Of a DNA stretch of 64,000 nucleotides, positions 1 to 50,374 are shown one piece after another (position 1 is the stretch's first letter; each line of letters starts with the position of its first letter). Origin of the DNA: Candidatus Harrisonbacteria bacterium (GTDB lineage: Bacteria; Patescibacteriota; Minisyncoccia; UBA6257; UBA11618); contig JAHFLO010000002.1 of NCBI GenBank assembly GCA_023244855.1, forward strand, positions 8,017 to 72,016. Reading direction: 5' to 3'. The notes under the pieces were generated by a model, which worked only from the letters and a program-made list of their open reading frames with translations, did not search any database and had not been told where the DNA came from. The position numbers and the translations under genes were made by a program.

Positions 1-158
1 CCTCTTAGGCGTATAGAGTACAAAGAACCAGTAATGCCCCCATCCACCCAAACCCTACCGGAACCGATACGTACCGCCTTGCGAGAAGAAAAGGATAGGA
101 AGGATAATCAATTGATACGGTTACCAACCGACCAATCCCGCGGGAACAACAACAATCT

Positions 159-881
159 ATGACACTTGAACAAATCGCCCGCCTCTACGTCATATTTAAA
201 ACGCTCCAGCCGGAAATCAAGGAATGGATAGCTTCGGATGACACAAGCGCAATCATTAAAGCGATTGCCGCGCGCTTTATTCTTTCAGACGAGCAAGAAC
301 GCGTTCTACCCCTCTTAGTACTTCGTCTCGTGACGCAAGACCTGCCGCCGGAAAGCTTTAAGGCGGAGCTCGCGAAAGAAACGGGTGTAGACACGGAGCT
401 CGCGAAAAATATTACGGATGCGATAGCAAAAGAAGTAATAGAGCCAATTGCCTCCGCCCTCCGCTATAGCGGCGTGAATACAGCTCTTTTAGGATTTAAC
501 GCCCCGGCAACAGCGCCGCATCCGGCAAGCGAAGCAATGCCGCGCCCCGCACCAGCACCGCAGCCACCGATACCCACAGACCCCATACAAACGGCCACGG
601 AAAACGCGCCCGAATCCATCCTTGTACCAACACCCCTACAACCCTTCATCCTCCACGAAGAGCCGCGCGCAGTAGCCGCACAAAGTGGAGCAAGATCCTT
701 CAGCTACTCCCCACAGACGGATACGGGCGTGGAGAGTACCACTTCTCCGCGTGTCGTGATCGAGCGCGTAGTTCACTACAGCCAATTACGCACGCCGCTT
801 AACATTGCGAGCACGACAAGGAGCGCCCCCGAAGGGGATCGAGTAAAGCCGAAGCTCCCGCAATCGAAGTGGTTTACCTAG
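159..881 (+). CDS. hypothetical protein with Pro/Ala-rich low-complexity centre; first gene upstream of the T4SS-like operon
   Basis: 240-aa ORF in ORF track. No recognisable domain. Central PAPAPQPPIP stretch. Ends 5 nt before the next co-directional ORF. Confidence 0.4.
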   Translation: MTLEQIARLYVIFKTLQPEIKEWIASDDTSAIIKAIAARFILSDEQERVLPLLVLRLVTQDLPPESFKAELAKETGVDTELAKNITDAIAKEVIEPIASALRYSGVNTALLGFNAPATAPHPASEAMPRPAPAPQPPIPTDPIQTATENAPESILVPTPLQPFILHEEPRAVAAQSGARSFSYSPQTDTGVESTTSPRVVIERVVHYSQLRTPLNIASTTRSAPEGDRVKPKLPQSKWFT

Positions 882-885
882 CACT

Positions 886-1362
886 ATGCAATTCCAAGTA
901 CCCCAATACATAGACGTCGAGGACAAAATCGTAGGTCCTTTAACTCTCAAGCAATTCTTTTATATCGCGGGTGGGTTCCTCACGATATTCGTATCGTTCT
1001 TCGTACTCGTGACATGGCTTTGGCTTATAACGTCGGTCTTCATAGGCACTATGTCGCTTGCATTCGCGCTCGTAAAATACAACGGCAGGCCGCTCATGAC
1101 GGTAACGCTCGCCGCCATCCGCTACTATACCGGCGGCCGCACATATACATGGCAAAAAACGGATAGCGTAAAGAAGCAAGCGCCTACGGGATTGCTCGCC
1201 AAGCTCGGGCTCGGTATGACGGCGGGTACGCGCCCTGTCGCAGGGCGCGAAACATCAGTTAACGGGTTTTTTAGTCGCAGCCTGCCAGCGCAAGACCGCA
1301 CGGAAATCGTGCGCCGCACGGACGGCGACCGTGCGATCGCTAAACGGATAGACTACAGATAG
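886..1362 (+). CDS. PrgI/VirB3-like small membrane protein of conjugative T4SS
   Basis: N-terminal pattern QVPQYIDVEDKIVGPLTLKQFFYIAGGF followed by two TM helices matches the PrgI-family layout. It sits immediately upstream of the VirB4-family ATPase, as in Gram-positive type T4SS loci. Confidence 0.5.
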   Translation: MQFQVPQYIDVEDKIVGPLTLKQFFYIAGGFLTIFVSFFVLVTWLWLITSVFIGTMSLAFALVKYNGRPLMTVTLAAIRYYTGGRTYTWQKTDSVKKQAPTGLLAKLGLGMTAGTRPVAGRETSVNGFFSRSLPAQDRTEIVRRTDGDRAIAKRIDYR

Positions 1363-1372
1363 AATTAACGAT

Positions 1373-2053
1373 ATGGCAGAAGAATCCCTCGCAACCCAAA
1401 ACCTTCTCGAAGCGGAACGCATCGAGCGCAACTGCATAGTATTACGGGACGGCGGCCTGCGCTCGGTAATTCTCGTATCCGGCATGAACTTCGAGCTGCG
1501 CTCGGAAGACGAACAAAACGCCGCGATAGGCGCGTACCAGAATTTCTTAAACGGGCTCGATTTCTCTGTGCAGATTTTCATCCATTCACGGAAGATCAAT
1601 ATCGACGGATACATACAAGAACTTTCGGGTATTGAGCGAGGAGAAATAAACGACTTATTAAAAGGCCTTATTGGCGGATACAAAGACTTCGTGGCATCTC
1701 TCGTGGCAGACAACCCGATTATGGAAAAAACCTTCTTTGTGATCGTGCCGTACGACTCCGTATTACCCGCAAACCAACGCGCAATATTCGACGCCATCAC
1801 CGGATTCTTTAAGCGTAAAAAAGTAGCCGACCCGACAGAGGCCGTCCCTACACCAGAAACCACAGCACCCAAAGCTAACGCAGTGGGGGACAGCAGCTTC
1901 GCCGCACTCACTCAGCGCACCGAGCAGGTAGTAAGTGGCCTTTCGCAAATAGGCCTCCGCGCCGTGCCGCTTGAAGAAGACGAGCTCGCGGAACTCTTAT
2001 ACAACCTCTACAACCCCGAAACCGTCGAACGCCACGTTATCCCTCAAGAATAA
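1373..2053 (+). CDS. VirB4/PrgJ-family ATPase, N-terminal domain (separate ORF)
   Basis: Sequence LRDGGLRSVILVSGMNFELRSEDEQNAAIGAYQNFLNGLDFSVQIFIHSRKINIDGYI...FFVIVPY closely resembles the N-terminal region of PrgJ/TraE/VirB4 proteins. Ends with TAA at 2051-2053. Confidence 0.7.
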   Translation: MAEESLATQNLLEAERIERNCIVLRDGGLRSVILVSGMNFELRSEDEQNAAIGAYQNFLNGLDFSVQIFIHSRKINIDGYIQELSGIERGEINDLLKGLIGGYKDFVASLVADNPIMEKTFFVIVPYDSVLPANQRAIFDAITGFFKRKKVADPTEAVPTPETTAPKANAVGDSSFAALTQRTEQVVSGLSQIGLRAVPLEEDELAELLYNLYNPETVERHVIPQE

Positions 2054-2057
2054 ACCC

Positions 2058-3758
2058 ATGAAAAAAGACCTCGCAGACATCATCGCCCCGCCGGAAATCA
2101 CGATAGCGCCAGACCACATGAAGGTGGGGAAAAAGTTCGCCCGCACGGTTTTCGTTTCCAACTACCCGCGCTACCTTTCGACCGGATGGCTCAGCCCCAT
2201 CGTTAACGCGCCTGAGCTTATGGACGTGAGCATCTTCATGCATCCGGCCGATACCGCAGACACGTTAAAAAAACTCAAGCGGAAGACGGCACAGATCGAA
2301 GCGCAGCTCATGGACCAAGAAGAGAAGGGATTAGTGCGGAACCCGCTACTCGAAACCGCGTACCAAGACGTGGAGGGTCTGCGCGATTCGCTCCAGCAGG
2401 CGCGCGAACGCCTCTTTATGGTCGGTCTCTATATAACGTTCTACGCCGACACCTTAAAAGATCTAGAAATACTCGAAGGCCGCATCGTGAATATGCTCGA
2501 AACGCGACTAGTATACGCAAAGCAAGCGACATTCGAGCAAATGGAAGGATGGAACTCAACGCTCCCCATAGCCGCAGACCGGCTCGCAGTGCACACACCC
2601 ATGAATTCCGGACCCGCTTCATCACTCTTCCCGTTTGTCTCGACCGACCTTACGGGCGACACGGGAATACTCTACGGCGTAAACCGCACCGATAACACGC
2701 TCGTGATATTCGACCGCTTCAGCCTTGAAAACGCCAACATGGTTATCTTCTCCAAGTCCGGTGGCGGTAAATCGTACGCCGCGAAACTCGAGGCACTCCG
2801 GCTCATGATGACAGGGGTCGACGTGATAATCATCGACCCCGAGCACGAATACAAAGCCCTTGCCGAGTCCGTGGGTGGTAGTTTTATAAATGTTTCACTC
2901 GCTTCAACCGAACATATTAATCCGTTCGACATACCGAATGTCCCCGAAGACGAAAGCGACGACGACGCCCTGAAGTCGCACGTCGTCACGGTAGCCGGCC
3001 TCGTAAAGATGATGGTGGGGGAGATAACGCCCGAAGAGGAAGCGATGCTTGACCGCGGTATTACGGAAACCTACGCGCTAAAAGACATCGTCCCCGGTAA
3101 AGACTTTTCCAAAAAAACCGCGCCCGTGCTCGCGGACTTGAAGACCGTCCTCGAAAGCATGGAGGGAGGTAAATCAATCGCTGAACGCCTATACCGCTTC
3201 ACGGAAGGCAGTTATTCGGGCTTCACGAATTTTTCCACAAACGTTGACCTTAGTAACCGCCTTATCGTCTTCTCCCTTCGCGACCTCGAGGAAGGCTTAC
3301 GCCCCATCGCCATGTACCTCGTGCTCAACTTCATCTGGAACGTCGTGCGTGGAAAGATAAAAAAACGCGTCATGATCGTCGACGAAGCATGGTGGCTCAT
3401 GCGCTACCCCGAAGGCGCCTTATTCCTCTTCGGGCTCGTAAAGCGCGCACGCAAATATTACTTGGGCGTAACAACTATTACGCAAGACGTAGAAGATTTC
3501 CTTCTTTCGCCCTACGGCCGCCCTATTATTACTAATTCATCGTTACAACTACTCCTTAAACAATCGCCGGCGATGATGGACGTACTCCAAAAGACGTTCA
3601 ACCTCTCGGAGGGGGAGAAGAGCCTCCTTCTTGAAACACCCGTGGGGCAAGGGCTCTTTTTCGCGGGAACGAAGCACGCCGTAATACAAGTGCTCGCCTC
3701 TTCGCCCGAAGATAAGGTAATAACCACAAACCCGAAAGATACCGTATGGAAGAAATAA
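2058..3758 (+). CDS. VirB4/TrbE/CagE-family T4SS ATPase, C-terminal ATPase part
   Basis: Walker A FSKSGGGKSYAAK, DPEHEY and Walker B MIVDEAWW motifs typical of VirB4. An in-frame ATG at 2058 lies 4 nt after the stop of the N-terminal ORF. The longer track ORF 1971-3758 is probably an upstream overextension. Confidence 0.8.
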   Translation: MKKDLADIIAPPEITIAPDHMKVGKKFARTVFVSNYPRYLSTGWLSPIVNAPELMDVSIFMHPADTADTLKKLKRKTAQIEAQLMDQEEKGLVRNPLLETAYQDVEGLRDSLQQARERLFMVGLYITFYADTLKDLEILEGRIVNMLETRLVYAKQATFEQMEGWNSTLPIAADRLAVHTPMNSGPASSLFPFVSTDLTGDTGILYGVNRTDNTLVIFDRFSLENANMVIFSKSGGGKSYAAKLEALRLMMTGVDVIIIDPEHEYKALAESVGGSFINVSLASTEHINPFDIPNVPEDESDDDALKSHVVTVAGLVKMMVGEITPEEEAMLDRGITETYALKDIVPGKDFSKKTAPVLADLKTVLESMEGGKSIAERLYRFTEGSYSGFTNFSTNVDLSNRLIVFSLRDLEEGLRPIAMYLVLNFIWNVVRGKIKKRVMIVDEAWWLMRYPEGALFLFGLVKRARKYYLGVTTITQDVEDFLLSPYGRPIITNSSLQLLLKQSPAMMDVLQKTFNLSEGEKSLLLETPVGQGLFFAGTKHAVIQVLASSPEDKVITTNPKDTVWKK

Positions 3759-4165
3759 CAGAAGCACCTAAAATAAACGGTATCGAAGGAGCCGTCATGG
3801 TCGGCGTGTGTATTCTCTTCGATGTTGCGGATTTTTTTGCCACGTTTCTCGACGCGCTGTTCGGCGCAGGGGAGCTCGTTAAGTTTTTTATCAACGCCTT
3901 CGCTTCCGTAGTACTCTGGCTGTGGGCTACTATGAAAGGAGTGGGTGCCGAACGCACGCTCGTAGGAAACCTTCTCGAATTCGTTCCGATAATAAATACG
4001 CTCCCGATACGGACGATAGCGATGCTCGCGACCATATGGCTCGACCGACACCCGAAGCAGGCGGAGCTAGCGGAAAATCTCGCACCAAAAATAAAAAATC
4101 CGAGACGTGCCATAGGTAGAAGGGCTCTTGCCGCAAAAGCCGCGAAAACAACGCAAGTCGCATGA
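3746..4165 (+). CDS. small hydrophobic membrane protein (T4SS operon member, unknown role)
   Basis: 139 aa with 2-3 predicted TM helices and a basic C-terminal tail. Start overlaps the VirB4 stop (translational coupling). Confidence 0.4.
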   Translation: MEEITEAPKINGIEGAVMVGVCILFDVADFFATFLDALFGAGELVKFFINAFASVVLWLWATMKGVGAERTLVGNLLEFVPIINTLPIRTIAMLATIWLDRHPKQAELAENLAPKIKNPRRAIGRRALAAKAAKTTQVA

Positions 4166-4740
4166 ACTACGCCATGAAAATAATCCTAAAAACGATACTT
4201 ATACTCGGAATATCCCTACCAGCACTCTCGTATGCCGCGCCAGAGCTTATCATTACGTGGAAGGCGGCGTCGTATACGCCTAAAGACTATGCCGGAAAAG
4301 CATTGCCTATAGCGGGGACGCCAATCGACGTTTCAGCGCTACTTATCGACGGAGGGAAAGTAATAAATCTTGCTTCGTACGATATCAATTGGTATGCAGG
4401 CGAAGACCGCATCGCAGGCGGTAAGGGAGTCGCAACCACGCGCACGAAAGCACCCATCACAGGACAAGATTTTCTCGAGCTGCGCGTAAACGTAGGGAAG
4501 TATGAAAATCAGCCGCTCGACGCGTTCGTTACTATCCCCGTGGTCCGCCCAGAAATCCTTATACGAAAAAAGGAGGGCACAAAACCGCAAGAGTTTTCTA
4601 TAATTCCCTATTTCTGGAACATCCTAAGCGAAAGCGGGCTCACGGTTACATGGGAAGATACCGGAGATACCGTAACCGCGAGCGCGGAAAATAAAAAAGA
4701 TCCAATGGAATTCGCGCGCATGACCACACCAAAACAATGA
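4162..4740 (+). CDS. secreted protein with signal peptide (T4SS operon member)
   Basis: N-terminal MKIILKTILILGISLPALSYAAP signal-peptide-like segment. ATGA overlaps with neighbours on both sides. Confidence 0.4.
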   Translation: MNYAMKIILKTILILGISLPALSYAAPELIITWKAASYTPKDYAGKALPIAGTPIDVSALLIDGGKVINLASYDINWYAGEDRIAGGKGVATTRTKAPITGQDFLELRVNVGKYENQPLDAFVTIPVVRPEILIRKKEGTKPQEFSIIPYFWNILSESGLTVTWEDTGDTVTASAENKKDPMEFARMTTPKQ

Positions 4741-5528
4741 AACGGATGCTTATAGCCTCATTACTATTCTACGCCCTCGTAATTGGGGGTGCAGCTTACG
4801 CACAGGCGCAACAAGATCCGTTCGCTCAGTACGGATCCGCAACGACCGAACGGTGTGGTCCCCAATTCAACGGCGATTACATATTATGCGAATCGACGGG
4901 TGGACTCATACAACAACGGCAAACCAACTTCGCCGCATTCCTTCGTGAGATGTATACTCTCGCCTTTATTCTCGCCGGCACCGTGGCTTTCGTGCGCATC
5001 GTCTACGGGGGAGTACTGTATAGCTGGAGCGGCGTTATAGACCAGAAAAAGAAGGCGATAGGAATATTTTGGAACGTCGCGACTGGCATGGCACTCCTTA
5101 TGGGGTCGTACGCCGTCTTAAACACTATAAACCCCGCACTTACCATCCTCGCTCTGCCGAACGTTACAATGAGAAGACCACAGAACAGCAGCGTACCAAC
5201 GCTACCACTTTCATCACTAAATGAAATGCCGTCACCGATCGATCTACTCGATAAGTCGATCAATGGCATTAGAAAAGAAAATGAAGCACTTATAAACGGC
5301 CTCGGACTTTATACGCTCGGTATGGACGCAGAGGCGACACGGGACCTCGTTAACAGCGAAATAGAAAGAATAGGAACTCCCTCGAATAACGCGGAACGCG
5401 CGCGACTCGGCGAACTGCAAAAATCCTTACAGGAACTCGAAGAAATCGAAGCGCAAGCGAATGCCGTTAGGAGCACTCCTACAAACACGCCGCCTCAGCA
5501 ATATAAACGTACTAAGACAACCCAGTGA
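4737..5528 (+). CDS. VirB2/TrbC pilin-like domain protein with long C-terminal extension
   Basis: Signal peptide (LLFYALVIGGAAYAQAQQ) followed by two hydrophobic helices (MYTLAFILAGTVAFVRIVYGG; IGIFWNVATGMALLMGSYAVL), the hallmark layout of T4SS pilins. Then a Pro-rich/coiled-coil C-terminal region. Assignment by architecture only. Confidence 0.35.
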   Translation: MKRMLIASLLFYALVIGGAAYAQAQQDPFAQYGSATTERCGPQFNGDYILCESTGGLIQQRQTNFAAFLREMYTLAFILAGTVAFVRIVYGGVLYSWSGVIDQKKKAIGIFWNVATGMALLMGSYAVLNTINPALTILALPNVTMRRPQNSSVPTLPLSSLNEMPSPIDLLDKSINGIRKENEALINGLGLYTLGMDAEATRDLVNSEIERIGTPSNNAERARLGELQKSLQELEEIEAQANAVRSTPTNTPPQQYKRTKTTQ

Positions 5529-6388
5529 GTAAGTGGCTTTTCATATCCGTAACCGTCGTACTCGTGGCGCTTTTTGGCACCGTGGCGTATTACGGCATGC
5601 AGGCGCTCGAACCGCATACGTACGTTCCGACCGTAGAAGAAGAGGTGAAGGTTACTGCGACAAGCACGCCCACAACATCGCTTTCTTTACCGAGTCTCCC
5701 CGGACTGCCAGAGAAAAAACCAATACCTGTTTCTTTGGATGAAATCTCAGCCGACCCCGTAAAAGTTTTAAACACCGAAGAGCAGCTCGCATACCTCGCC
5801 ACCTCGACGATCCGCGAACTGAATCCCGACAAGCTCTTCTTCGCGCCGAAAGACAGCCGCGCATACCCCTACGGCAAAAACGATATGTTCGTAATCGAAC
5901 GCCCGTCGAACCTTGTGCGAACGTCCTTATGGACTATTAATACGTCAACGAAGACCGTTTCACGCATTGCCGGCCCTAGCTTCGGATTAATGGCACGCTG
6001 GTCCAAAAACGGCCGCTATGTTTTTACCATGAGCGCGGATCAAGCCGGAGCGCTCACGCTTTCTTTTATTGATACGAAAACGAAAACAACGACACCGCTC
6101 CGCATAGCCACACTCCCATCCAAATGTTTCATCATGGACGCTAGTCCCATAATGTACTGCGGCGTGCCGCAGGGTGCGCCCGAGGGAGTAGTGCTACCCG
6201 ACGATTACCTCAAGAACAAGTTCGCCTCGACGGACCGCATCGTAAAAATAGATTTTAAAACCCCTAAGGTAACGGAACTCTGGAGCGGCACGTCAGAATC
6301 CCTCGACATCCAAAACCCCGCCGTGATCGGCACCAACTTATTCTTCACCAACAAAACCGACGACTCCGTCTGGAAGCTGGCCTTATAG
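5525..6388 (+). CDS. N-terminally membrane-anchored, beta-rich extracytoplasmic protein (last gene of T4SS-like operon)
   Basis: Single N-terminal TM (LFISVTVVLVALFGTVAYY), Pro/Thr-rich linker, then a beta-rich domain. Overlapping start with the upstream gene. Confidence 0.4.
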   Translation: MSKWLFISVTVVLVALFGTVAYYGMQALEPHTYVPTVEEEVKVTATSTPTTSLSLPSLPGLPEKKPIPVSLDEISADPVKVLNTEEQLAYLATSTIRELNPDKLFFAPKDSRAYPYGKNDMFVIERPSNLVRTSLWTINTSTKTVSRIAGPSFGLMARWSKNGRYVFTMSADQAGALTLSFIDTKTKTTTPLRIATLPSKCFIMDASPIMYCGVPQGAPEGVVLPDDYLKNKFASTDRIVKIDFKTPKVTELWSGTSESLDIQNPAVIGTNLFFTNKTDDSVWKLAL

Positions 6389-6473
6389 AACGTAATTAAG
6401 ACTTGTATCACTTTTACGACGACCGTCGTTAAAATGATATATTCGTGCACCACCTAGTAAGCCTCGAAAAAAA

Positions 6474-6908
6474 CTAAAGTAACGGCTTCACGATAACCCT
6501 GCGGTCGCGTTTGTCGCCCGCGCTTTCGGTCTTCACGTCGGGACGGGTGGCGAGCTCCGTGTGCACCAAGCGGCGCTCGTACGCGTTCATTGGCGGCAAT
6601 TGCACATCTGCTTTCGTTATCAAAACCTTGCGCGCTGCCGCTTTCGCAATCTCCACAATCAAATGCTCGCGCTCCTTGCGGTAGTTGTTCACGTCAACGT
6701 ACACCATGCCGTGCACGCCGACCTTGCGGCCGATAGTGCGCGCGATGAAGCCGAGGTCGGCGACGAGGCGGGGGATCCATTCTTTAAGCCATTCACCCTC
6801 GTCCAAGAATATCGAAAACCGCGCGCCCGCGGGGTCGAGTTCCACAACGGAGCCGGAAAACCCAGCTACCCGCAAAAGTTCGTTAAGGGCTTGTTTGATA
6901 TGCTCCAT
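6474..6908 (-). CDS. khpB: Jag/KhpB RNA-binding protein (KH + R3H domains)
   Basis: R3H-type motif RRLVHTELA and KH-like region. Canonical position downstream of yidC in the rpmH-rnpA-yidC-jag cluster. Confidence 0.75.
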   Translation of the reverse strand: MEHIKQALNELLRVAGFSGSVVELDPAGARFSIFLDEGEWLKEWIPRLVADLGFIARTIGRKVGVHGMVYVDVNNYRKEREHLIVEIAKAAARKVLITKADVQLPPMNAYERRLVHTELATRPDVKTESAGDKRDRRVIVKPLL

Positions 6909-6915
6909 AGAATAC

Positions 6916-7566
6916 TTATGTTTTAGGGAATTTCCGTTCCACGTGCAACTGTTGGGCTATAGAGAAAAGCGTCGTCGTTACCCAATAAATGCCGATAGCG
7001 GCAGGGAGCGACCATAAGACCGCAACGGTAATTATAGGCCCAATCATTACCATATTGCGCGCCGTCTGCGCCGCAGGGCTCTTATCGTCCTTATTGCCGG
7101 CCATGCTCATTACGCCCAGTAAATACTGCAGAAGCGCCGCAATGACAACCAAAAGGATACTCCGCTCGCTGAGCGTTATCAATCCTAAAAAGGACTGTGA
7201 AAGCTCCGGTAGAGGCATAAGGAAAACCTGGTAGAGAGCGATCAATATCGGCAATTGGACGAAGATAAGTCCGAGACTCATTAAGGGATTTACACCATGT
7301 TCCTTATAAAGCGCCATTAAGGCCTTACCTTGCTCTTCGCGGTTGCCTTTATGCTTCGTCTGGATGTCTTGAATATGCGGCTGGATCTTTTTCAAGACGT
7401 GCTGCTGTTTAAGACTCTTATAGAAGAGAGGATAGAGCACTAAACGCACGATAACGGTAAGTAAAATAATCGCGGAGCCGAGGTCGCCGAACGTTATATT
7501 CGCGTGCAAAAAAAGCAGCAGCGCGAGAAGCGGATCAATTAAGAGAAGATGGAATAAGTTCGTCAT
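6916..7566 (-). CDS. yidC: YidC/Oxa1-family membrane protein insertase (short form)
   Basis: Multiple TM segments and the conserved YidC core (LYPLFYKSLKQQHVLKKIQP...YKEHGVNP). Between jag and rnpA as in the conserved origin-proximal cluster. Confidence 0.85.
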   Translation of the reverse strand: MTNLFHLLLIDPLLALLLFLHANITFGDLGSAIILLTVIVRLVLYPLFYKSLKQQHVLKKIQPHIQDIQTKHKGNREEQGKALMALYKEHGVNPLMSLGLIFVQLPILIALYQVFLMPLPELSQSFLGLITLSERSILLVVIAALLQYLLGVMSMAGNKDDKSPAAQTARNMVMIGPIITVAVLWSLPAAIGIYWVTTTLFSIAQQLHVERKFPKT

Positions 7567-7849
7567 GCCATTGTTTGGCTGTATACGCCGCGGCCGCCGG
7601 ATGCGTGATCACAAGGTAATCGGCAACCGGCCACGCGGCCATAACCCCCTGCACTGCCGTAAACGCCATGCGGCGGATTTTATTCCTGCCCACGGCGGAC
7701 TTCGCAACACGCCTGCCTACCACGACGCCGAAACGAGCGTAGGGGAAAAGGGCGGGAAAGATTTTTACCGTAAAAGCGGGCTTGCGCACCGTGCGGCCGT
7801 GGCGCAGAAGCGCCTCCTGCACCGGCAGGCGGTTCTTCTTAGCGAGCAT
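7535..7849 (-). CDS. rnpA: ribonuclease P protein component
   Basis: KKNRL...RFGVVVGRRVAKSAVGRNKIRR pattern typical of RnpA. Overlaps the yidC start and the rpmH stop as usual. Confidence 0.85.
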   Translation of the reverse strand: MLAKKNRLPVQEALLRHGRTVRKPAFTVKIFPALFPYARFGVVVGRRVAKSAVGRNKIRRMAFTAVQGVMAAWPVADYLVITHPAAAAYTAKQWHDELIPSSLN

Positions 7850-7991
7850 GCACCGCGGTAACCGCGAGAGATTTCCTTCCCTTGCGGCGGCGCTTGGTTA
7901 TAACGCGCGCGCCCATAGAAGAAGACATACGCTTCAAAAAACCGTGCGTCCTGCGGCGCTTTTTCTTGTGCGGATTGTAGGTTTGACTCAT
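7842..7991 (-). CDS. rpmH: 50S ribosomal protein L34
   Basis: Manual translation of the minus strand gives MSQTYNPHKKKRRRTHGFLKRMSSSMGARVITKRRRKGRKSLAVTAVHAR (L34 signature). Not in the ORF track (<60 aa). Stop overlaps the rnpA start. Confidence 0.8.
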
Positions 7992-8050: not shown

Positions 8051-8078
8051 TTGACAGGGGAACGCCCGACTCTACAAT
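8051..8078 (+). promoter_or_regulatory. sigma70-like promoter of dnaA (TTGACA-16nt-TACAAT), -10 ends 7 nt before ATG 8086
   Basis: TTGACA at 8051-8056 and TACAAT at 8073-8078. The first ATG (8077) overlaps the -10 element. The second ATG (8086) is 7 nt downstream, a leaderless configuration. Confidence 0.45.
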
Positions 8079-8085
8079 GAGTACC

Positions 8086-9462
8086 ATGGATTGCAACGAG
8101 CTTTGGCAGAAAGTACTCGGCGAAGTCGAATTGCAAATATCGCGACCTAATTTCATAACGTGGTTTAAGAATAGTTCTATTTTGGAGAAAAAAGACGGCA
8201 CGGTTACTGTCGGTCTGCCAAATAATTTCGCCCGCGAGTGGGTTGAAAACAAATATCACAACACGATCTTCGGTACACTCCGCACAATCGACAGCGGTAT
8301 ACGCAAAGTAGAATATATTCTTACAAAAGATTCCGCGAAACTCACTCATGGCGTAAAAAAAGCGGGTAGCGACCGCCCGTATACCGATTCTTCTTCGCAG
8401 CTCGCGTTCAACGAGCTGATTATCGACCCGAACACCAACCTTAACCCCCACCACACGCTTAACTCCTTCATCGTCGGGTCGTCCAATGAAATGGCGTATG
8501 CCGCGGCGATGGGAATCATTAAAGAAATAGGCACTAAATACAACCCACTCTTCATATACGGCGGTGTTGGTGTGGGTAAAACCCACTTAATGCAGGCTTT
8601 AGGTAACGAAGTGGTAAAGCTATACCATAATAAAGTCCGCGCACGGTACGTCACGTCCGAAAAATTCACGAACGACGTTATCTGGGCGATGAAGAATAAG
8701 CGCATGGACTCGATTAAAGAAAAGTACCGCGCAATCGACGTCCTCATCATCGACGATATTCAATTCATTGCCGGTAAGGCGCGCACCGAAGAAGAATTTT
8801 TCCATACGTTTAATGCGCTCTACGAAGAACGTAAACAGATTATTATATCCTCAGACCGCTCGCCGAAGTTTATCCCTATACTCGAAGAACGCCTGCGCTC
8901 GCGCTTCGAAGGGGGAATGATAGTAGATATCGGTTACCCTGATTTTGAGCTTAAGGCGGCCGTACTCCGCGCTAAGCTCGCGGAGAAAAAAGCTGAATTA
9001 TCCGACGAGGTGATCGCTGAGATTGTTAATAAGGTAAAGAAAGGTTTCCGCGAGCTCGAAGGAATATTAAACCGCATACTTTTTTATCAGCAGGTTAAAA
9101 ACCTCATTATAACGCCCAAGTTAGCCGAGCAGATTATCGCCGAAGTCATAAAGACCCCGCAGAAAAATATCCACCCCGACGTTATAATCCAAACCGTTTC
9201 CGATTTTTTTGAGGTACCGACGGCAGACATTATGAGCCATTCGCGCAAACAGCAGGTTGTAGAACCCCGCCAGATTGCTATTTACCTCTTACGCGATATC
9301 TTAGACCTTTCATACCCCTTTATTGGTGAAAAACTAGGTAAGCGCGACCACACAACCGTGCTCTACGCGTACGAGAAAATATCGCAGGAAATGACGCGCA
9401 ACCAGACGCTTAGTCAGAAAATACTTTCTATCAGGGAAATGCTGAATAAAGCATATGTATAA
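8086..9462 (+). CDS. dnaA: chromosomal replication initiator protein DnaA
   Basis: AAA+ Walker A GGVGVGKTHLMQALGNE, sensor motifs and C-terminal DNA-binding helix DHTTVLYAYEKI. N-terminus MDCNELWQKVL resembles DnaA domain I. The track ORF begins at 8077, which overlaps the predicted -10. Confidence 0.9.
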   Translation: MDCNELWQKVLGEVELQISRPNFITWFKNSSILEKKDGTVTVGLPNNFAREWVENKYHNTIFGTLRTIDSGIRKVEYILTKDSAKLTHGVKKAGSDRPYTDSSSQLAFNELIIDPNTNLNPHHTLNSFIVGSSNEMAYAAAMGIIKEIGTKYNPLFIYGGVGVGKTHLMQALGNEVVKLYHNKVRARYVTSEKFTNDVIWAMKNKRMDSIKEKYRAIDVLIIDDIQFIAGKARTEEEFFHTFNALYEERKQIIISSDRSPKFIPILEERLRSRFEGGMIVDIGYPDFELKAAVLRAKLAEKKAELSDEVIAEIVNKVKKGFRELEGILNRILFYQQVKNLIITPKLAEQIIAEVIKTPQKNIHPDVIIQTVSDFFEVPTADIMSHSRKQQVVEPRQIAIYLLRDILDLSYPFIGEKLGKRDHTTVLYAYEKISQEMTRNQTLSQKILSIREMLNKAYV

Positions 9463-9668
9463 CCTGTGGATAGTTTACGGATAACATGTTGCCAAACAAC
9501 CACATACTTCACATGATTACCATAACCTGTAAAAGTTATCCCTCGAGCAACCGCGAAATAATCCACAGGTAGACTATGCGAATAACGCCACTATATACAA
9601 GAGAAAAAGAAGTTATCCACCTATCCGCCTCGCTTACTACTACTACTAACTATATATAAAGAGAATAT
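9463..9668. promoter_or_regulatory. oriC candidate: DnaA-box cluster plus AT-rich unwinding element between dnaA and dnaN
   Basis: DnaA-box-like 9-mers tGTGGATAg (9465-9473), TAATCCACA (9559-9567), TTATCCACC (9613-9621) and weaker TTATCCCTC/CTATCCGCC. AT-rich tract tactactactaactatatataaagagaatat immediately before the dnaN start. Confidence 0.7.
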
Positions 9669-10781
9669 ATGAAACTAATACTCTTCCGTGACAACCTGAA
9701 AAACGGACTGTTGGCTGCCGAACGAGCGGTAGCTGACTCGTCTAATTTACCGATATTAAAGAACGTACTTGTGCGTACGGTAGGTACGAAGATCCAGCTT
9801 ACAACCACAAACCTCGAACTCGCTATAACAAAGCTTATATCGGGAAAGATTACGGAAGAGGGGGCATTATCCGTCCCGTTCGCTACTTTTTATAGCATCG
9901 TTAATAATACGGCGCACGACCGCATCAATCTTGAAAGCGAGGGGTCGAGCTTCGTCGTGAAAACGGATAATTACGAAGCGAAGATGCAGGGGATGGTAGC
10001 TGAGGATTTTCCGCTTATTCCACGCATGGCGGACGGAGGCGCATATATGGAGATTGACCCCGTCGTATTCCAAGACGCGCTGCAGCAGGTGATAAGCGCG
10101 GCGCATATATCAGATATTCGTCCGGAAATCAGTGGTGTGCTATTCGACTTCCAGATGACGGTGTTGAAGCTTGTTGCTACCGACAGTTTCCGCTTAGCGG
10201 AGAAGATTATCGACGGAAAAAAATTTAAACATACGTTCGATGCCGGATTTCGGGCTATAGTGCCGCTCCGTACCGCGCAGGAGCTCTTACGGGTTATATC
10301 GCGCACTACGCCTCTCCTCGTGCATTATGACAGCAACCAGATGCTCTTTAAATCCGACGACGTAGAGGTAATGTCGCGCCTTATCGATGGCACGTACCCT
10401 GATTACGAACAAATCATCCCGAAGGATGCGGAAACGGAGGTTTCGCTAGACCGCGCACACCTTATAAACGCCGTAAAATTAGTAAGTAATTTTAGCGGTA
10501 AAACGAACGACGTGCGCCTTTCAACGGATACAGAAGGGAAGACGGTTACTGTCCATTCGGTTAACCAATTCCTTGGCGAAAATAAATATCTCATCCCTGC
10601 GCGCGTTACGGGTACACAGATAGCGGATATTCCGTTTAACTGGCGGTATCTTTTAGATGGCTTAAAATCGATGCAGGGGGAGTCGGTTGTTTTAAAATTG
10701 AATGGTAGTAACCGCCCGGCGATGCTCCGCCCTGCGGACGATTCTTCGTTTCTTTATATCGTGATGCCGATTAGAGTCTGA
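9669..10781 (+). CDS. dnaN: DNA polymerase III beta sliding clamp
   Basis: 370-aa three-domain clamp-like sequence directly downstream of dnaA. Typical N-terminal MKLILFRDNLKNGL start. Confidence 0.9.
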   Translation: MKLILFRDNLKNGLLAAERAVADSSNLPILKNVLVRTVGTKIQLTTTNLELAITKLISGKITEEGALSVPFATFYSIVNNTAHDRINLESEGSSFVVKTDNYEAKMQGMVAEDFPLIPRMADGGAYMEIDPVVFQDALQQVISAAHISDIRPEISGVLFDFQMTVLKLVATDSFRLAEKIIDGKKFKHTFDAGFRAIVPLRTAQELLRVISRTTPLLVHYDSNQMLFKSDDVEVMSRLIDGTYPDYEQIIPKDAETEVSLDRAHLINAVKLVSNFSGKTNDVRLSTDTEGKTVTVHSVNQFLGENKYLIPARVTGTQIADIPFNWRYLLDGLKSMQGESVVLKLNGSNRPAMLRPADDSSFLYIVMPIRV

Positions 10782-14626: not shown

Positions 14627-16030
14627 ATGTCCCTTATAGACGAACAGTTGGCGCGGCTTGCGCGCGAGCACGAAGAGCGGAGCGAGAAGCGTGAGACGGA
14701 GCGCCGTACAGCAGTAGCGCCGCAGGCGGAAGTCGCGGGTGTTATAAGTGTTTCGCCGGAACGTGAGCAGGAACTCGCGCCGAGCATGGCGACTTTCGCG
14801 GACGTGAAATCGGCTTTTGCGGCGTTCGATTTTGAAAACGGCTCCATCGCCTCGTTTATGGAATTACTTCTACTTTCTGGCGTACGCTTGCGCGCCTCGG
14901 ATATTCATATGGAGCCGCAGGAGGTTTCGGTACTTATGCGATTGCGCATTGACGGCATTATGAATGACGCGGGCGCGGTACCGATGCCGTATTACAAAAT
15001 GCTTTCGTCGCGTATCAAGCTCCTTTCCCGTATGAAGCTGAATGCGGACAAGCCGCAGGATGGGCGGTTCTCAGTGCGCACGGAAAGCGCGCAAATTGAA
15101 GTGCGCGTTTCTTCCGTCCCTGCGCAATACGGCGAAACACTTGTGATGCGTCTCTTAAACCCCGCAGCGCTCCAAACGGATATCGGCTCCTTGGGGTTGC
15201 GGCAAGACGACTTCGCTATCGTTATGCGCGAACTTTCCGTACCGAACGGCATGATTTTAAATACCGGCCCTACGGGATCAGGCAAGACGACGACACTCTA
15301 CTCGTTCCTTAAGAAGGTCGCGCAGCCGGGTAATAAGGTTGTTACTATCGAAGACCCTATAGAATACGCGGTCGCGGGCATCGAGCAGACGCAGGTGGAC
15401 GAGGATAAGGGGTATTCCTTCGCAACGGGGCTCCGCGCTATCGTACGGCAGGATCCGGATATTATCCTCGTGGGCGAAATTCGCGATGCGGAAACGGCCG
15501 GTATCGGTATGCAGGCCGCGCTTACGGGGCACCAAGTTTTTTCTACGGTACACGCGAACGACGCAGCGGGCGCCATACCGCGCCTTATGGATATGGGCGT
15601 GCAAAAAGAGACTATTGGCCCCGCGATCAATTTAATCATGGGTCAGCGTCTCGTGCGCCGTTTGTGCGACGCATGCAAAAAGCCCGCGCAGGTGGATGCG
15701 GAGCTCGTTTTGAAAATCAAACAGTATTTAGAAATGCTGCCCGCACGTGTTTCGCGCGAAGGGCTTTCTGCTGAAGGGTTATACGAGCCCGTGGGGTGTG
15801 CGGCATGCGACGGCGCGGGCTACCGCGGGCGCATCGCTATTTTTGAACTCTTTCCCGTAAATGCAGATGCCGAAAAAATAATAGCCGCGGGGGCGGGCGC
15901 GGGGGATTTATATGCCTTCGCTGTCGCACGCGGCATGGTTACGATGCAACAGGATGGCGTGTTAAAAGCCCTCCATGGTATAACGACGGTAGCTGAAATC
16001 GAAGCCGCGACGGGCCCGATTGCTTTCTAA
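14627..16030 (+). CDS. GspE/PilB-family type II/IV secretion or pilus assembly ATPase
   Basis: Walker A GPTGSGKTTTLYSF, VTIEDPIEY, ILVGEIRD and a C-terminal tetracysteine CDAC...CAACDG zinc motif. The true start may be an internal Met; the N-terminus is low complexity. Confidence 0.8.
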   Translation: MSLIDEQLARLAREHEERSEKRETERRTAVAPQAEVAGVISVSPEREQELAPSMATFADVKSAFAAFDFENGSIASFMELLLLSGVRLRASDIHMEPQEVSVLMRLRIDGIMNDAGAVPMPYYKMLSSRIKLLSRMKLNADKPQDGRFSVRTESAQIEVRVSSVPAQYGETLVMRLLNPAALQTDIGSLGLRQDDFAIVMRELSVPNGMILNTGPTGSGKTTTLYSFLKKVAQPGNKVVTIEDPIEYAVAGIEQTQVDEDKGYSFATGLRAIVRQDPDIILVGEIRDAETAGIGMQAALTGHQVFSTVHANDAAGAIPRLMDMGVQKETIGPAINLIMGQRLVRRLCDACKKPAQVDAELVLKIKQYLEMLPARVSREGLSAEGLYEPVGCAACDGAGYRGRIAIFELFPVNADAEKIIAAGAGAGDLYAFAVARGMVTMQQDGVLKALHGITTVAEIEAATGPIAF

Positions 16031-20748: not shown

Positions 20749-21903
20749 ATGGATAAGAGGGTCAGCGCGAGCATATTTTTTTCAATTTTAGCGTTCGTTT
20801 TCTTTCCCTCGCTCACCCTCGCCGCCGTCCAACAAGCCACTATCATAACCCGTCCCGGCGTCGTGACCGCCCCTATTAAATACTACTTCGATCTCTCCTC
20901 CGCACTCAGTGAAGGCGTGAACCAAGGCGTGAAAGTAACCGTCTCCGCCTCAAACAGCGAAAAGACCGCCGTCCGCTTTGATTCCGTTAAGCTCTTTGAT
21001 CAATCAGGCGCAACCGTCGGCAATAACGTCGCTTCTAAAACAGACGCTCTCACGGCAAATCCGTACGGCTTTACTTTCGACAACTTTGGCGTCGCACCCG
21101 CAGACCTCGCAAAGGTGGCAGGTGTGCAAATAACCTTCATGGATCTTGGTGGCGAAAACCCCACGGGCAAAGTAACCATACAGAGCGTTGCTGTATCCGT
21201 CATACGGGACACAGGAGAGGCGTGTGTGATAATTGACCCGATAGTCATCACCACACCACCACCGCCGATACCTACTATCACGCAGATACAATCATCACGT
21301 CCGCTCGTGCAGCCGGGGACGCATGGTGATGGGGGAAGTGGGGGTTCGGGCGGGGGGTCGGGGGCGTCGCAGGGGCCGACTGAGTTGGCGACTGTTGTTG
21401 ATTATTGTCCAAGCTCATGTGGCGGCACATGGGGGAGTGGAGCTGAATGGTATACGTCTACTGCGGCAAATTCTCCTTCTAGTTATCTTAAGGGAACAGG
21501 TACGGGATTTTCAGTTCCTACGGGGGCGACTATTAATGGGATTATTCTTACTATTTCAAAACGTGGCGAAGGATTATCGGGCGAAGAAGTTTCTGATAGC
21601 GCTGTACGGCTTATAAAAAATGCGGTACTAGCTGGGGAAAGTAAGCATAAAATAGGTATATGGCCGACAAGCGCACAAACTTTTACCTATGGAGGATCTG
21701 GTGATGTATGGGGGTTATCACTTACCCCTGCAGATGTTAATAGTTTAAGTGATTTTGGCGCTGCTATTAATATAACCGGCGGAACTACTGGCACAGGGTA
21801 CATAAATAGCATGAAGATGACCGTTTATTACACCCCGCTCGGCGGGTCGGTATACGATTCGTTTATGGATCTCATCCGGGCATTTTTCGGAAAAATCCGT
21901 TGA
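20749..21903 (+). CDS. secreted protein with signal peptide, Pro-rich linker and Gly/Ser-rich segment
   Basis: Signal peptide FFSILAFVFFPSLTLAAV, TTPPPPIPT linker, GDGGSGGSGGGSGASQG, and a Cys pair CPSSCGG. No catalytic motif recognised. Confidence 0.5.
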   Translation: MDKRVSASIFFSILAFVFFPSLTLAAVQQATIITRPGVVTAPIKYYFDLSSALSEGVNQGVKVTVSASNSEKTAVRFDSVKLFDQSGATVGNNVASKTDALTANPYGFTFDNFGVAPADLAKVAGVQITFMDLGGENPTGKVTIQSVAVSVIRDTGEACVIIDPIVITTPPPPIPTITQIQSSRPLVQPGTHGDGGSGGSGGGSGASQGPTELATVVDYCPSSCGGTWGSGAEWYTSTAANSPSSYLKGTGTGFSVPTGATINGIILTISKRGEGLSGEEVSDSAVRLIKNAVLAGESKHKIGIWPTSAQTFTYGGSGDVWGLSLTPADVNSLSDFGAAINITGGTTGTGYINSMKMTVYYTPLGGSVYDSFMDLIRAFFGKIR

Positions 21904-22902: not shown

Positions 22903-24065
22903 TGAAAAAGATTTATATATTTTTACGCGATATATTCTATCACCGCATCATGGCGTTTATTGCCGCCGCCTTGTATGGCTTTCCGAGTCGGCGCCTTACG
23001 GTGATCGGCGTTACGGGCACGAAGGGAAAGTCCACAACCGTGGAGCTTATTGCGCACATACTCGAATCCGCGGGTAAAAAAGTCGCGGTGAGCTCATCCG
23101 TACGCAATACCGTATCCGGCATGACGATGCCCGGTTGTTTTAAGTTGCAGCGACTTTTGCGCGACGCAGTCTCCTCCGGGTGTGAGTACGCAGTAATGGA
23201 GGTCACATCGCAGGGCGTGGTTCAGCATCGGCATCGGTTTATACGGTGGGCGGTTGCCGTTTTTACCAATCTCGCGCCGGAGCATGTGGAGGCGCATGGT
23301 AGTTTTGAAAATTATCGCGCGGCGAAAGTCGCGTTCTTCGAATATGTGGCAAAAAATCCGAAGGCGGTATTTGTAATAAATAAGGATGATGAAAATGCAC
23401 CCTACTTCATACGCGCTGCACAGCATCATAAGAAAATAGTATTTAGCAGGGAGCAGGCGCCGACGACCTTATACGGGGTATTTAATGAATATAATGCGGG
23501 TGCGGCACTTGCGGTTGCTTCAGCGCTCAATATATTTGAAGATGTGGCGCGTCGTGCGGTGGGTGATTTTAAGGGGGTATATGGGCGCATGGAGTTTTTA
23601 CAGCGTAATCCGTTTACGGTGGTCGTCGATTATGCCGTAACGCCGGATTCACTGCGCGCTGCCTATAATGCGTTCGCGGGCAGTCGGATCATCGCGGTAT
23701 TCGGTTGTACCGGCGGCGGGCGTGATACGTGGAAGCGTCGTGTAATGGGGGGCATTGCGGGGGAGGTGTGCGCGGCAGTCGTCTTAACAGACGACGATTC
23801 ATACGACGAAGATACGGAATCGATTATGGCGGAAATCGAGGTGGGTCTTGTTTCGACGAAAGAAGGCGCGTGGAAGATCGGGGAGAATTATTGGAAGATC
23901 GTAAGCCGCCGCGCGGCGATCGAGAAGGGATTATCGTTAGCAGGGGAGGGCGACGTAGTCCTTGTGACGGGTAAGGGCGGGGATAAGTGGTTGCGCATGA
24001 AGCGTGGTGTGAAGATTCCGTGGAGCGATCAAGATGTCATTCGTGATATCCTGAAAGCACTGTAA
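22902..24065 (+). CDS. Mur ligase family protein lacking the usual N-terminal substrate domain
   Basis: P-loop VIGVTGTKGKSTT at residue ~36 (about 100+ in MurC-F). Central-domain motif VFTNLAPEHVEAHGSFENYRAAK and C-terminal GKGGDKW. The architecture fits several different Mur-ligase-fold subfamilies. Confidence 0.6.
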   Translation: MKKIYIFLRDIFYHRIMAFIAAALYGFPSRRLTVIGVTGTKGKSTTVELIAHILESAGKKVAVSSSVRNTVSGMTMPGCFKLQRLLRDAVSSGCEYAVMEVTSQGVVQHRHRFIRWAVAVFTNLAPEHVEAHGSFENYRAAKVAFFEYVAKNPKAVFVINKDDENAPYFIRAAQHHKKIVFSREQAPTTLYGVFNEYNAGAALAVASALNIFEDVARRAVGDFKGVYGRMEFLQRNPFTVVVDYAVTPDSLRAAYNAFAGSRIIAVFGCTGGGRDTWKRRVMGGIAGEVCAAVVLTDDDSYDEDTESIMAEIEVGLVSTKEGAWKIGENYWKIVSRRAAIEKGLSLAGEGDVVLVTGKGGDKWLRMKRGVKIPWSDQDVIRDILKAL

Positions 24066-28163: not shown

Positions 28164-28278
28164 CGTTTTATTGGAGGCTTCGCCGAATTTCGGCGGGCCT
28201 CCTTTTTTTTGATTGCTCTTGCAATCAATCCCTCGAAATTCGCAGAGCGAAGGGGGATGCTATACAGTATTTATATAT

Positions 28279-34726: not shown

Positions 34727-34730
34727 CAAA

Positions 34731-50080: not shown

Positions 50081-50374
50081 TTAATACTCCGCAAATCCCC
50101 GTATCCGGTCAGCTTCACGTTCTACGAGCTCTCCCTCGTATTCGCCGTTATGGGCGTGGTTGCTGCCGTACGAGGGTTTTCCTTGGTCTATGTGGAGATT
50201 TACCACAAGCGCCGTTCCTTCTTTTTTGACGTAGGCGTGGTAGCGGGGATAATCGTGGCCAGAAACGCGGCGCATACAGCTTGCTTCTGCGCCTACCTCG
50301 CGGTCGAAGGCATAGCCACATTGCCGCATGAAGTCCACGGCGCTTTGCTTGAAGTTCGGTATTTTTATGGTCAT
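50081..50374 (-). CDS. hypothetical small protein (98 aa from internal Met)
   Basis: Track ORF 50081-50416 overlaps tRNA-Pro. The start is moved to MTIKIPNF. No recognisable motif (…HAYVKKEGTALVVNLHIDQGKPSYGSNHAHNGEYEG…). Confidence 0.3.
   Translation of the reverse strand: MTIKIPNFKQSAVDFMRQCGYAFDREVGAEASCMRRVSGHDYPRYHAYVKKEGTALVVNLHIDQGKPSYGSNHAHNGEYEGELVEREADRIRGFAEY

Follow-up and report, generated by a model that had tools for sequence, protein, structure and literature searches.

An origin-proximal gene cluster in a Harrisonbacteria-like genome as a probable vertically inherited, non-conjugative T4SS of Patescibacteria

Gene clusters that encode T4SS-like proteins beside chromosomal core genes raise the question of what kind of machine they represent: a conjugative element or its remnant, a decaying system, or a resident apparatus that moves substrates into or out of the cell. 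Such a cluster occupies one end of a 64,000-nucleotide stretch of DNA (here called the window) from a host genome that is Parcubacteria/Paceibacteria, Harrisonbacteria-like. The evidence described below makes it very probable that the locus is the 3' two-thirds of a vertically inherited, origin-proximal, non-conjugative Patescibacteria chromosomal T4SS that forms a host-contact pilus or channel. Its features and immediate context are as follows.

1 to 162, plus strand: C-terminal 53 codons of a VirB6-like protein (frame open from base 1, stop at 160-162)
159 to 881, plus strand: p240, a soluble protein of 240 aa, orphan family
886 to 1362, plus strand: PrgI/VirB3-like small membrane protein (PF12666)
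1373 to 2053, plus strand: TrsD, homologous to the VirB4 N-terminal domain and free-standing (NF041427, NF045975, PF26593)
2058 to 3758, plus strand: VirB4 ATPase of the CD1110/MPF_FATA type, with motor domain (NF045971, PF19044)
3746 to 4165, plus strand: p139, a small all-helical membrane protein of 139 aa, orphan family
4162 to 4740, plus strand: p192, a secreted protein of 192 aa with a Sec signal peptide, probably Ig-like (hydropathy, weak Ig-type matches)
4737 to 5528, plus strand: VirB2-like T4SS pilin (PF18895, mainly via orthologues)
5525 to 6388, plus strand: p287, a membrane-anchored TolB/PD40/WD40-like beta-propeller (orthologue profile against PDB)
6389 to 6473, no strand: convergent intergenic spacer of 85 bp at the operon end
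6474 to 7991, minus strand: jag (R3H), yidC, rnpA and rpmH, context outside the T4SS (Pfam)
8077 to 10781, plus strand: dnaA and dnaN with probable oriC in their spacer, context (Pfam, DnaA boxes, GC skew)

The eight co-directional, mostly overlapping ORFs that a first-pass annotation placed at 159-6388 were all found again at those coordinates as one tightly packed operon, and a separate gene call on an identical metagenome contig (L001) gave the same set. Overlaps of 4 nt occur at the junctions 159/162, 4162/4165, 4737/4740 and 5525/5528 and one of 13 nt at 3746/3758, the remaining junctions being gaps of 4-10 nt. VirB4 most likely starts at the ATG at 2058, as called in L001 and four bases past the TrsD stop, rather than at the TTG at 1971, and therefore an 83-nt overlap with TrsD is not real. 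The operon does not begin at 159, as had been supposed, but is truncated by the window edge, with positions 1-162 belonging to an upstream gene of the same operon and the true start lying upstream of 159. At its other end, a scan for consensus intrinsic terminators picked up no strong one in the spacer at 6389-6473; a short hairpin, ACGAC-GACC-GTCGT, followed by an A/T-rich tail was spotted there by eye only.

The gene cut by the window edge appears from sequence to encode a polytopic, VirB6-like membrane protein of extended length. The ORF extends to at least 376 aa on L001 and to 1149 aa in a related locus, L068, whose VirB4 is 99% identical to that of the window. The L068 protein matches PF04610 (TrbL/VirB6) with E=3.6e-4 and 20.8 bits (cutoff 25.9) over profile positions 1-191 of 215, as do 7 of 45 VirB6-like orthologues at a best value of 8.3e-6, and the gene is present in 54/54 loci with enough flank. 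Two further conserved proteins are encoded upstream in close relatives, the secreted, 458-aa up458 and the anchored, 249-aa up249. The earlier description of the locus as "minimal" and as lacking a VirB6-like protein was thus an artefact of the window edge, the VirB6-like gene lying immediately upstream.

Profile searches matched the PrgI, VirB4, TrsD and pilin families, and the PrgI-like protein and VirB4-family ATPase proposed from the sequence were both recovered above cutoff. The product of 886-1362 matches PF12666 (PrgI) at 2.3e-9 and 38.1 bits (cutoff 27), shows a two-TM hairpin at residues 23-65 by hydropathy and is detected in 77 of 82 loci. VirB4 matches NF045971 (CD1110 family) at 1.5e-113 and 380.6 bits (cutoff 325) over model positions 183-729 of 752, as well as PF19044 (P-loop_TraG) at 1.1e-23; its Walker A (SKSGGGKS) and Walker B (VMIVDEAW) motifs are intact and conserved in relatives. 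Directly 5' of virB4, the product of 1373-2053 matches NF041427 (TrsD/TraD) at 5.6e-6, under the curated cutoff, and NF045975 (VirB4_plasma) at 1.3e-7 over model positions 103-185, and carries a precomputed PF26593 TraC-like assignment. What had been called a "split VirB4" is actually a natural TrsD and VirB4 pair, and a decaying system pseudogenised by frameshift or sequencing error, a reading suggested by two adjoining ORFs that jointly cover one VirB4 model, is virtually excluded and was rejected: the same two-gene layout with short gaps is conserved in 64 related loci, an intact in-frame fusion (TrsD part at residues 1 to ~215) is found in 15 of 79, TrsD is established as a family in its own right, Patescibacteria having 2,272 homologues of it (PMC12102498), and every ORF is intact with its catalytic motifs conserved.

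The signal-peptide, two-helix pilin-like protein noted at first pass is likewise upheld by its orthologous family. The window pilin (4737-5528) matches PF18895 (T4SS_pilin) weakly, with E=0.0057 and 17.1 bits (cutoff 26.6), and the profile is matched by 51 of 53 orthologues (best 6.5e-12), with the gene found in 59 of 65 loci. Its layout comprises a signal peptide, a Cys-containing N-terminal segment, a two-helix core at about residues 65-135 that is conserved in the orthologue alignment, and a variable extension at 147-263; compared with L068, the core is nearly identical and the C-terminal extension has diverged. As both the window pilin and the VirB6-like protein fall under Pfam thresholds, their identity rests on family-level and synteny evidence.

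Four accessory proteins had been reported to have no recognisable homology. For p240 and p139 this still holds, no family being recognised and both remaining orphans, but p287 has the fold class of a TolB/WD40-like propeller and p192 shows a weak likeness to Ig domains. In p240, a six-helix N-terminal domain (residues 1-105), whose best structural matches, though weak, are T3SS gatekeeper X-bundles, is followed by a disordered Pro-rich linker and conserved short C-terminal motifs (PFILHEE, VVHYSxLRTPL and KWF). In the smaller p139, TM helices span about residues 12-39 and 44-62, and the C-terminal tail is basic. An N-terminal hydrophobic signal (by hydropathy) in p192 is accompanied by two beta-rich, W-centred repeats in the orthologue alignment; these are probably Ig-like, as suggested by weak matches to antibody constant domains at E 0.03-0.7, by BiPBP_C matches in 8 of 49 family members and by PKD and fn3 matches, and the protein occurs in 50 of 71 loci. 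A profile of 45 p287 orthologues matches TolB chains (2e-11) and a WD40 protein (1.1e-11) in PDB, with single-member Pfam matches to DPPIV_N, PD40 and the THOC3 propeller; p287 has a TM segment at residues 1-25 and invariant C201 and C212, and is present in 43 of 60 loci. Together with up249 and up458, these make six conserved unannotated partner families, none of which was found by name in published accounts of the Patescibacteria T4SS. No VirB8- or VirB1-like component was identified in the cluster.

The genomic setting bears on whether the cluster is mobile. Its position convergent with jag-yidC-rnpA-rpmH and near dnaA is confirmed by Pfam matches to R3H (jag, 1.5e-15), 60KD_IMP (yidC, 2.9e-42), Ribonuclease_P (rnpA, 1.5e-12) and Ribosomal_L34 (rpmH, 2.9e-17), with the DnaA and beta-clamp domains of dnaA and dnaN beyond. 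Near-consensus DnaA boxes at 9465, 9559 and 9613 and a cumulative GC skew minimum at 8-10 kb point to a probable oriC in the dnaA-dnaN spacer. Encoded on the lagging strand, the operon faces replication head-on, an unusual orientation for an essential operon with high expression.

A remnant or cargo-less ICE, or an integrated plasmid, with relaxase, T4CP and integrase lying outside the window, might be suspected from a VirB4 family otherwise carried on conjugative elements of monoderms and from a 5' part hidden beyond the window edge. This is highly improbable. Among 393 confirmed relatives, 80 (55-99% identical) were kept, titled almost all as Patescibacteria-group MAGs or simply "bacterium", and the 11-gene order, convergent with jag-yidC-rnpA-rpmH beside dnaA, is conserved across these 80 Parcubacteria/Paceibacteria genomes. 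In loci with enough flank, jag is downstream of the cluster in 45/47 and dnaA at most 8.5 kb away in 46/47. Identities of VirB4 and DnaA across relatives are correlated (r=0.95), indicating co-divergence, and the GC content of the operon (0.521) matches the value for the remainder of the window (0.519), so that neither the patchy distribution nor the atypical composition of an ICE is seen. In close relatives the 10 kb upstream contains just three further genes of the cluster, followed by ksgA and a UvrD-type helicase, and no tRNA or att-like or direct repeats bracket the cluster there. Window ORFs of at least 300 aa include no relaxase, T4CP or integrase, and these ORFs and the 10-kb upstream flank of L068 yielded no relaxase (MOB) with oriT; no VirD4/TcpA coupling protein was found within the window. 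Relaxases are in any case found in only 103 of 3,035 Patescibacteria genomes (PMC12102498). Because of this synteny, co-divergence and matching GC, and with no relaxase, coupling protein or integrase among the window ORFs of at least 300 aa and no tRNA or att-like repeats beside the cluster in close relatives, the cluster is almost certainly not an ICE, in agreement with the initial view that a classical conjugative element was unlikely. The window encodes a single FtsK/VirD4-superfamily protein, at 57208-59385, which was considered as a T4CP and rejected: it has FtsK alpha and gamma domains and, because the gamma domain is present, is a true FtsK.

A resident, chromosomal T4SS-like apparatus of the kind seen in reduced-genome bacteria had been proposed, and the same arrangement is indeed published for Patescibacteria (PMC12102498; PMC10633639). 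Their T4SSs comprise TrsD, PrgI, VirB4 and VirB2-like pilins without a relaxase, and in Paceibacteria lie near dnaA, dnaN, rnpA and rpmH (PMC12102498). Features that mark this clade are found here: a PrgI/VirB3 homologue adjoining virB4, TrsD next to virB4, a VirB4 of MPF_FATA/CD1110 type, a VirB2-like pilin near virB4 (by orthology to the PF18895-matching family), and a chromosomal site near dnaA/dnaN/rnpA/rpmH with no relaxase in the window or in relatives' upstream flanks. The window VirB4 would also fall in the Patescibacteria clade of VirB4s, as is suggested indirectly by the titles of the 80 kept relatives and by the mere 30-36% identity to plasmid-borne VirB4s. With a putative VirB6-like protein added, the component set agrees with that of the published Patescibacteria-clade T4SS (Quinonero-Coronel et al. 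2025, PMC12102498; SEML1_0006-0019 of S. epibionticum in Wang et al. 2023, PMC10633639), as do the chromosomal site beside the same core genes and the lack of a relaxase or T4CP nearby; the hosts, monoderm and with reduced genomes, are also alike. It differs from the published systems in carrying up249, up458, p240, p139, p192 and p287 and in having no peptidase or lysozyme genes downstream of virB4, and from the Saccharibacteria, with their array of six pilins, in having one pilin gene only, whose product ends in a long C-terminal extension of variable sequence.

Comparison with more distant systems illustrates what has been kept. Gram-positive MPF_FATA systems share the CD1110-model VirB4, the PrgI and TrsD homologues and the lack of outer-membrane core components, but the relaxase, T4CP, VirB1-type hydrolase, recognisable VirB8-like protein and PrgB-type adhesin are missing here, whereas the VirB2-like pilin is absent from the Gram-positive systems. 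The window cluster is, moreover, chromosomal and vertically inherited, and the nearest plasmid-borne VirB4s, from Actinobacteria and Firmicutes, are only 30-36% identical. With the MPF_T VirB/D4 systems (A. tumefaciens, R388 Trw) it shares a VirB2-type two-helix pilin, a VirB6-type polytopic protein and presumed VirB4-driven pilin extraction, but it lacks VirB5, VirB7-11 and D4, sits in a monoderm envelope and has a 117-aa C-terminal extension on its pilin.

The cluster very probably derives from monoderm MPF_FATA conjugation machinery, with the conjugation role lost. By analogy with characterized T4SSs, the VirB6-like protein, the PrgI/VirB3 hairpin and the TrsD/VirB4 pair would make up the translocon of the cytoplasmic membrane together with its motor, and the pilin, once inserted by Sec, would be pulled out of the membrane by VirB4 to polymerise as a pilus with its variable C-terminal extension presumably exposed at the surface. 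A wall-spanning or pilus-associated part may be formed by p192, p287 and the upstream 458-aa and 249-aa proteins, and could stand in for the missing VirB8/VirB1-type components, and p240, from its helical domain and short linear motifs, could serve the ATPase as an adaptor or regulator in the cytoplasm. The roles suggested for p240, p139, p192 and p287 draw on localisation and fold class only.

What such a machine would do can be graded. Conjugation is very unlikely as a present role, and a mainly adhesive one is improbable. T4SSs commonly export effectors, and a protein-effector or toxin exporter, acting as a contact-dependent injection device against a bacterial host, is possible but doubtful. 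The weak resemblance of the p240 N-domain to the substrate-sorting X-bundles of T3SS gatekeepers is consistent with it, as is the speculation about effector delivery in reviews (PMC11665869). A dedicated uptake machine importing host DNA or RNA, rather than a secretion system, can be entertained tentatively. Like H. pylori ComB and archaeal Ced, the cluster has a VirB4-type ATPase but neither coupling protein nor relaxase, which makes an import role plausible, and weak P-loop matches to CedB and CedD point the same way; these are, however, far under cutoff (25.1 bits against 700 and 22.9 against 600), at the level of sequence the ATPase does not belong to ComB4/CedB, and profile searches of the window proteins detected none of the partner families ComB2, ComB3, ComB6-10 or CedA. 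ComB is, moreover, a diderm system with VirB7-10 homologues, absent here, and no nucleic-acid-binding or nuclease component is recognised in the cluster. In favour of import, Patescibacteria lack nucleotide synthesis, and the T4SS of S. epibionticum, including its pilins, is essential while comEC is dispensable (PMC10633639, PMC11665869); T4SS-like pili where the cells meet their host, along with host-RNA feeding, have been reported (preprint 10.64898/2026.06.21.733656), and host nucleic-acid uptake is discussed along with such pili (PMC11665869).

Because the Patescibacteria system was described in 2023-2025 (PMC12102498; Wang 2023, PMC10633639), the locus, though real, is an ordinary example of it. 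Several conserved partner proteins are still uncharacterised, with p240 and p139 true orphans. By analogy with its published relatives, the whole would be a host-contact pilus and channel needed for an epibiotic or parasitic lifestyle.

The eight co-directional forward-strand ORFs called in the window at 159-6388 are joined by 4-nt ATGA-type overlaps, by one 13-nt overlap, or across gaps of 4-10 nt, and gene calls on an identical metagenome contig agree with them. The operon described in the first-pass annotation is therefore present as drawn, but it is not complete, as the window edge cuts it inside a gene ending at 162. Profile searches uphold its PrgI-like and VirB4-family members, both above cutoff. 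The start of VirB4 is most likely the ATG at 2058, four bases past the TrsD stop; the longer ORF from the TTG at 1971 is a mechanical maximum only. In a promoter and terminator scan, promoter-like sites showed no excess over shuffled controls, with no convincing one inside the operon; terminator-like sites outnumbered those in the shuffled sequence, though no convincing one emerged.

Components of the cluster in their conserved order (position, strand, assignment; where counted, loci having the component over loci whose flank permits judgement)
Upstream of the window: up249, membrane-anchored 249-aa protein; 41/51
Upstream of the window: up458, secreted 458-aa protein; 40/51
1-162, +: C-terminal 53 codons of the VirB6-like gene, frame overlapping the start codon at 159; 54/54
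159-881, +: p240, accessory protein; 66/66
886-1362, +: PrgI/VirB3; PF12666, 38.1 bits against a cutoff of 27
1373-2053, +: TrsD; TrsD/TraD models and the N-terminal part of VirB4 models, with a precomputed PF26593 TraC-like match
2058-3758, +: VirB4, CD1110/MPF_FATA type; NF045971 at 1.5e-113, above the curated cutoff, and PF19044 at 1.1e-23
3746-4165, +: p139, accessory protein; 48/77
4162-4740, +: p192, accessory protein; 50/71
4737-5528, +: pilin; sub-threshold T4SS_pilin match; 59/65
5525-6388, +: p287, accessory protein; 43/60

The VirB6-like component, reported earlier as not visible, is encoded by the gene that the window edge truncates. It spans at least 376 aa on the identical contig, and its orthologue in L068, a related locus whose VirB4 is 99% identical to that of the window, is a 1149-aa polytopic membrane protein with a near-full-length, sub-threshold match to TrbL/VirB6, a family matched by 7 of 45 orthologues. 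Upstream of this gene lie up458 and up249, followed by ksgA and a UvrD-type helicase. As a VirB8-like candidate, up249 gave no match in a PDB sequence search; as a VirB5-like candidate, up458 matched TrwJ at E=0.031, which is not significant given the many coiled-coil matches alongside it. The cluster yielded no VirB8- or VirB1-like component.

By sequence comparison, TrsD is the detached N-domain of VirB4: it occupies residues 1 to ~215 of TrsD-VirB4 fusions, and the Walker A ([AS]K[SA]G[SAG]GKS) and Walker B (hhhhDEAW) motifs of VirB4 are kept in relatives. Two ORFs are indeed present, as the term "split VirB4" implied, but they do not reflect damage; a frameshift or pseudogene is ruled out because the genes stand separately in 64 of 79 related loci and are fused in frame in the other 15. 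This recognition of TrsD is one of the comparative contributions of the analysis.

A scan limited to a single genome for each species gave 393 relatives, of which the best 80 (VirB4 55-99% identical) were used. Almost all of these 80 are titled Patescibacteria-group MAGs or simply "bacterium," and they include Parcubacteria, Paceibacterota, and Harrison-, Colwell-, Wolfe-, Yanofsky-, Azam-, and Portnoybacteria. Many MAGs among L006-L080 carry the title "uncultured Candidatus Saccharibacteria bacterium," yet by VirB4, DnaA, and gene order they fall with Parcubacteria/Harrisonbacteria; such titles are apparently defaults and not real taxonomic assignments. Comparison of six-frame ORFs by blastp and then jackhmmer revealed one 11-gene order, that of the table, convergent with jag-yidC; in 46 of 47 loci, dnaA follows within 8.5 kb on the downstream side.

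The first-pass annotation had judged a classical conjugative element unlikely, and this judgement is borne out. An ICE or plasmid remnant is rejected on the shared synteny, on GC content (0.521 in the operon, 0.519 in the remainder of the window), on co-divergence of VirB4 with DnaA (identities correlated at r=0.95, n=51), and on missing mobility features: the window's other large ORFs (300 aa or more) encode housekeeping functions, among them a genuine FtsK, identified by its gamma domain, and include no relaxase, T4CP, or integrase, and neither tRNAs nor bracketing direct repeats were found around the cluster in L068 or in L003, another related locus. Among VirB4s carried on plasmids, the closest come from Actinobacteria and Firmicutes and share only 30-36% identity. 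The cluster is a chromosomal system, vertically inherited. In L068, jag is separated from the p287 orthologue by an additional 197-aa plus-strand ORF (14652-15245), which has no counterpart in the 85-bp spacer of the window.

Profile search also confirmed the convergent flank, jag (R3H), yidC, rnpA, and rpmH, beyond which lie dnaA and dnaN. Together, the GC-skew minimum (8-10 kb) and three near-consensus DnaA boxes within the dnaA-dnaN spacer (9465, 9559, and 9613) locate the probable origin in that spacer. The operon (window 1-6388) is transcribed toward oriC (~9.46-9.67 kb) on the lagging-strand side, with negative GC skew across 1-8 kb. It thus meets replication head-on, an unusual placement for an operon that is presumably important; relatives keep the convergent orientation with jag-yidC.

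Elsewhere in the window, 8 kb from the cluster, a 467-aa PilB/GspE-like ATPase of the T2SSE family (14627-16030, +; PF00437 at 3.5e-108) is probably part of a type IV pilus or competence system; it stands beside YebC and RuvB rather than pilus genes. The tmRNA gene (34377-34729, tag ANAFSRQPELAYA) and a cluster of four tRNAs (Pro, Arg, Phe, and His; 50374-51004) are ordinary. Two beta-CASP/metallo-beta-lactamase RNases, RNase J and an RNase J-like protein, at 39479-41146 (-) and 24065-25390 (+), together with RNase Y at 45205-46728, make RNA-degrading enzymes notably dense for 64 kb, given recent RNA-feeding proposals for the phylum. Three plus-strand ORFs, 20749-21903 (384 aa), 28213-29535 (440 aa), and 55427-56881 (484 aa), have no Pfam match at E<=1e-5, the reality of the last being uncertain because a 346-aa reverse-strand ORF overlaps it.

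The pilin assignment holds at the level of the family, PF18895 being matched by 51 of 53 orthologues, with the window copy itself sub-threshold. The two-helix core is conserved, whereas the Cys-containing segment on its N-terminal side and the extension on its C-terminal side both vary. Between the window and L068, whose DnaA proteins are 98% identical, the signal peptide and core are nearly identical, while the extensions (window 5175-5528, residues 147-263; L068:13118-13678) are essentially unrelated, giving lengths of 263 and 332 aa. This pattern suggests that the extension is a hypervariable, surface-exposed part of the pilin.

The four accessory proteins, described earlier as having no recognisable homology, now divide. 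Two remain orphans, p240 and p139; p287 is a propeller protein and p192 tentatively Ig-like. An N-terminal anchor in p287 precedes a TolB/PD40/WD40-like beta-propeller (profile against PDB: TolB 2e-11, a WD40 protein 1.1e-11), with Pfam matches in agreement and two invariant Cys residues. In p192, a signal peptide is followed by two beta-rich repeats with weak Ig-type matches. Both are shorter in this sub-clade than in most relatives (p192 has 192 aa where the median is 228, and p287 has 287 where it is 366), and most p192 orthologues have a stretch of ~40 residues close to the C-terminus that is missing here (alignment A1). The small helical membrane protein p139 (AF2 pLDDT 83) gave no Pfam, PDB-sequence, or specific fold match; its 60 homologues are hypothetical where named, save one JGI "phage-related" label, and the idea of a second pilin was rejected at an hhalign probability of 0.2%. 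A cytoplasmic adaptor is a candidate role for p240, a soluble protein.

The translocon, wall or pilus, and adaptor roles proposed here are ones that we infer. By homology with characterised T4SSs (PMC12857230, PMC12624023), the VirB6-like protein, PrgI/VirB3, and TrsD with VirB4 would form a membrane translocon and its motor, and VirB4 would dislocate the pilin, once inserted by Sec, for polymerisation; p192, p287, up249, and up458, secreted or anchored, are candidates for a wall-spanning or pilus-associated part. For function, guided by the literature, we favor a host-contact pilus and channel, with import of host macromolecules slightly ahead of effector export and conjugation very unlikely. 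A more ambitious reading, which we regard as improbable, makes p240, p139, p192, p287, up249, and up458 a Paceibacteria-specific envelope/pilus module replacing VirB8, VirB1, and T4CP and repurposing what was once conjugation machinery to import host nucleic acids, by way of a pilus whose hypervariable C-terminal extension would set host specificity; to this module, p240 would bring its X-bundle-like domain and the linear motifs at its C-terminus.

Every distinctive point of the locus is already described for Patescibacteria and Paceibacteria (PMC12102498): most Patescibacteria T4SSs have no relaxase, and those of monoderm Paceibacteria combine PrgI, a VirB4 with detached N-domain, and a VirB2-like pilin, with no relaxase or T4CP, beside dnaA, rnpA, and rpmH. 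In S. epibionticum, the T4SS (SEML1_0006-0019) and pilins are essential and comEC is dispensable (PMC10633639); by locus tag, that T4SS is also origin-proximal. Uptake of host nucleic acids has been proposed (PMC11665869; preprint 10.64898/2026.06.21.733656). The locus is thus categorically nothing new. Slight additions to this literature are the explicit 11-gene Paceibacteria cluster, a fold class for p287 and tentatively p192, two orphan families, and the divergence of pilin extensions between strains with nearly identical VirB4. The Patescibacteria T4SS is essential in the single species tested, and the widespread orphan families p240 and p139, together with the hypervariable pilin extension, provide concrete targets for structural and genetic work.
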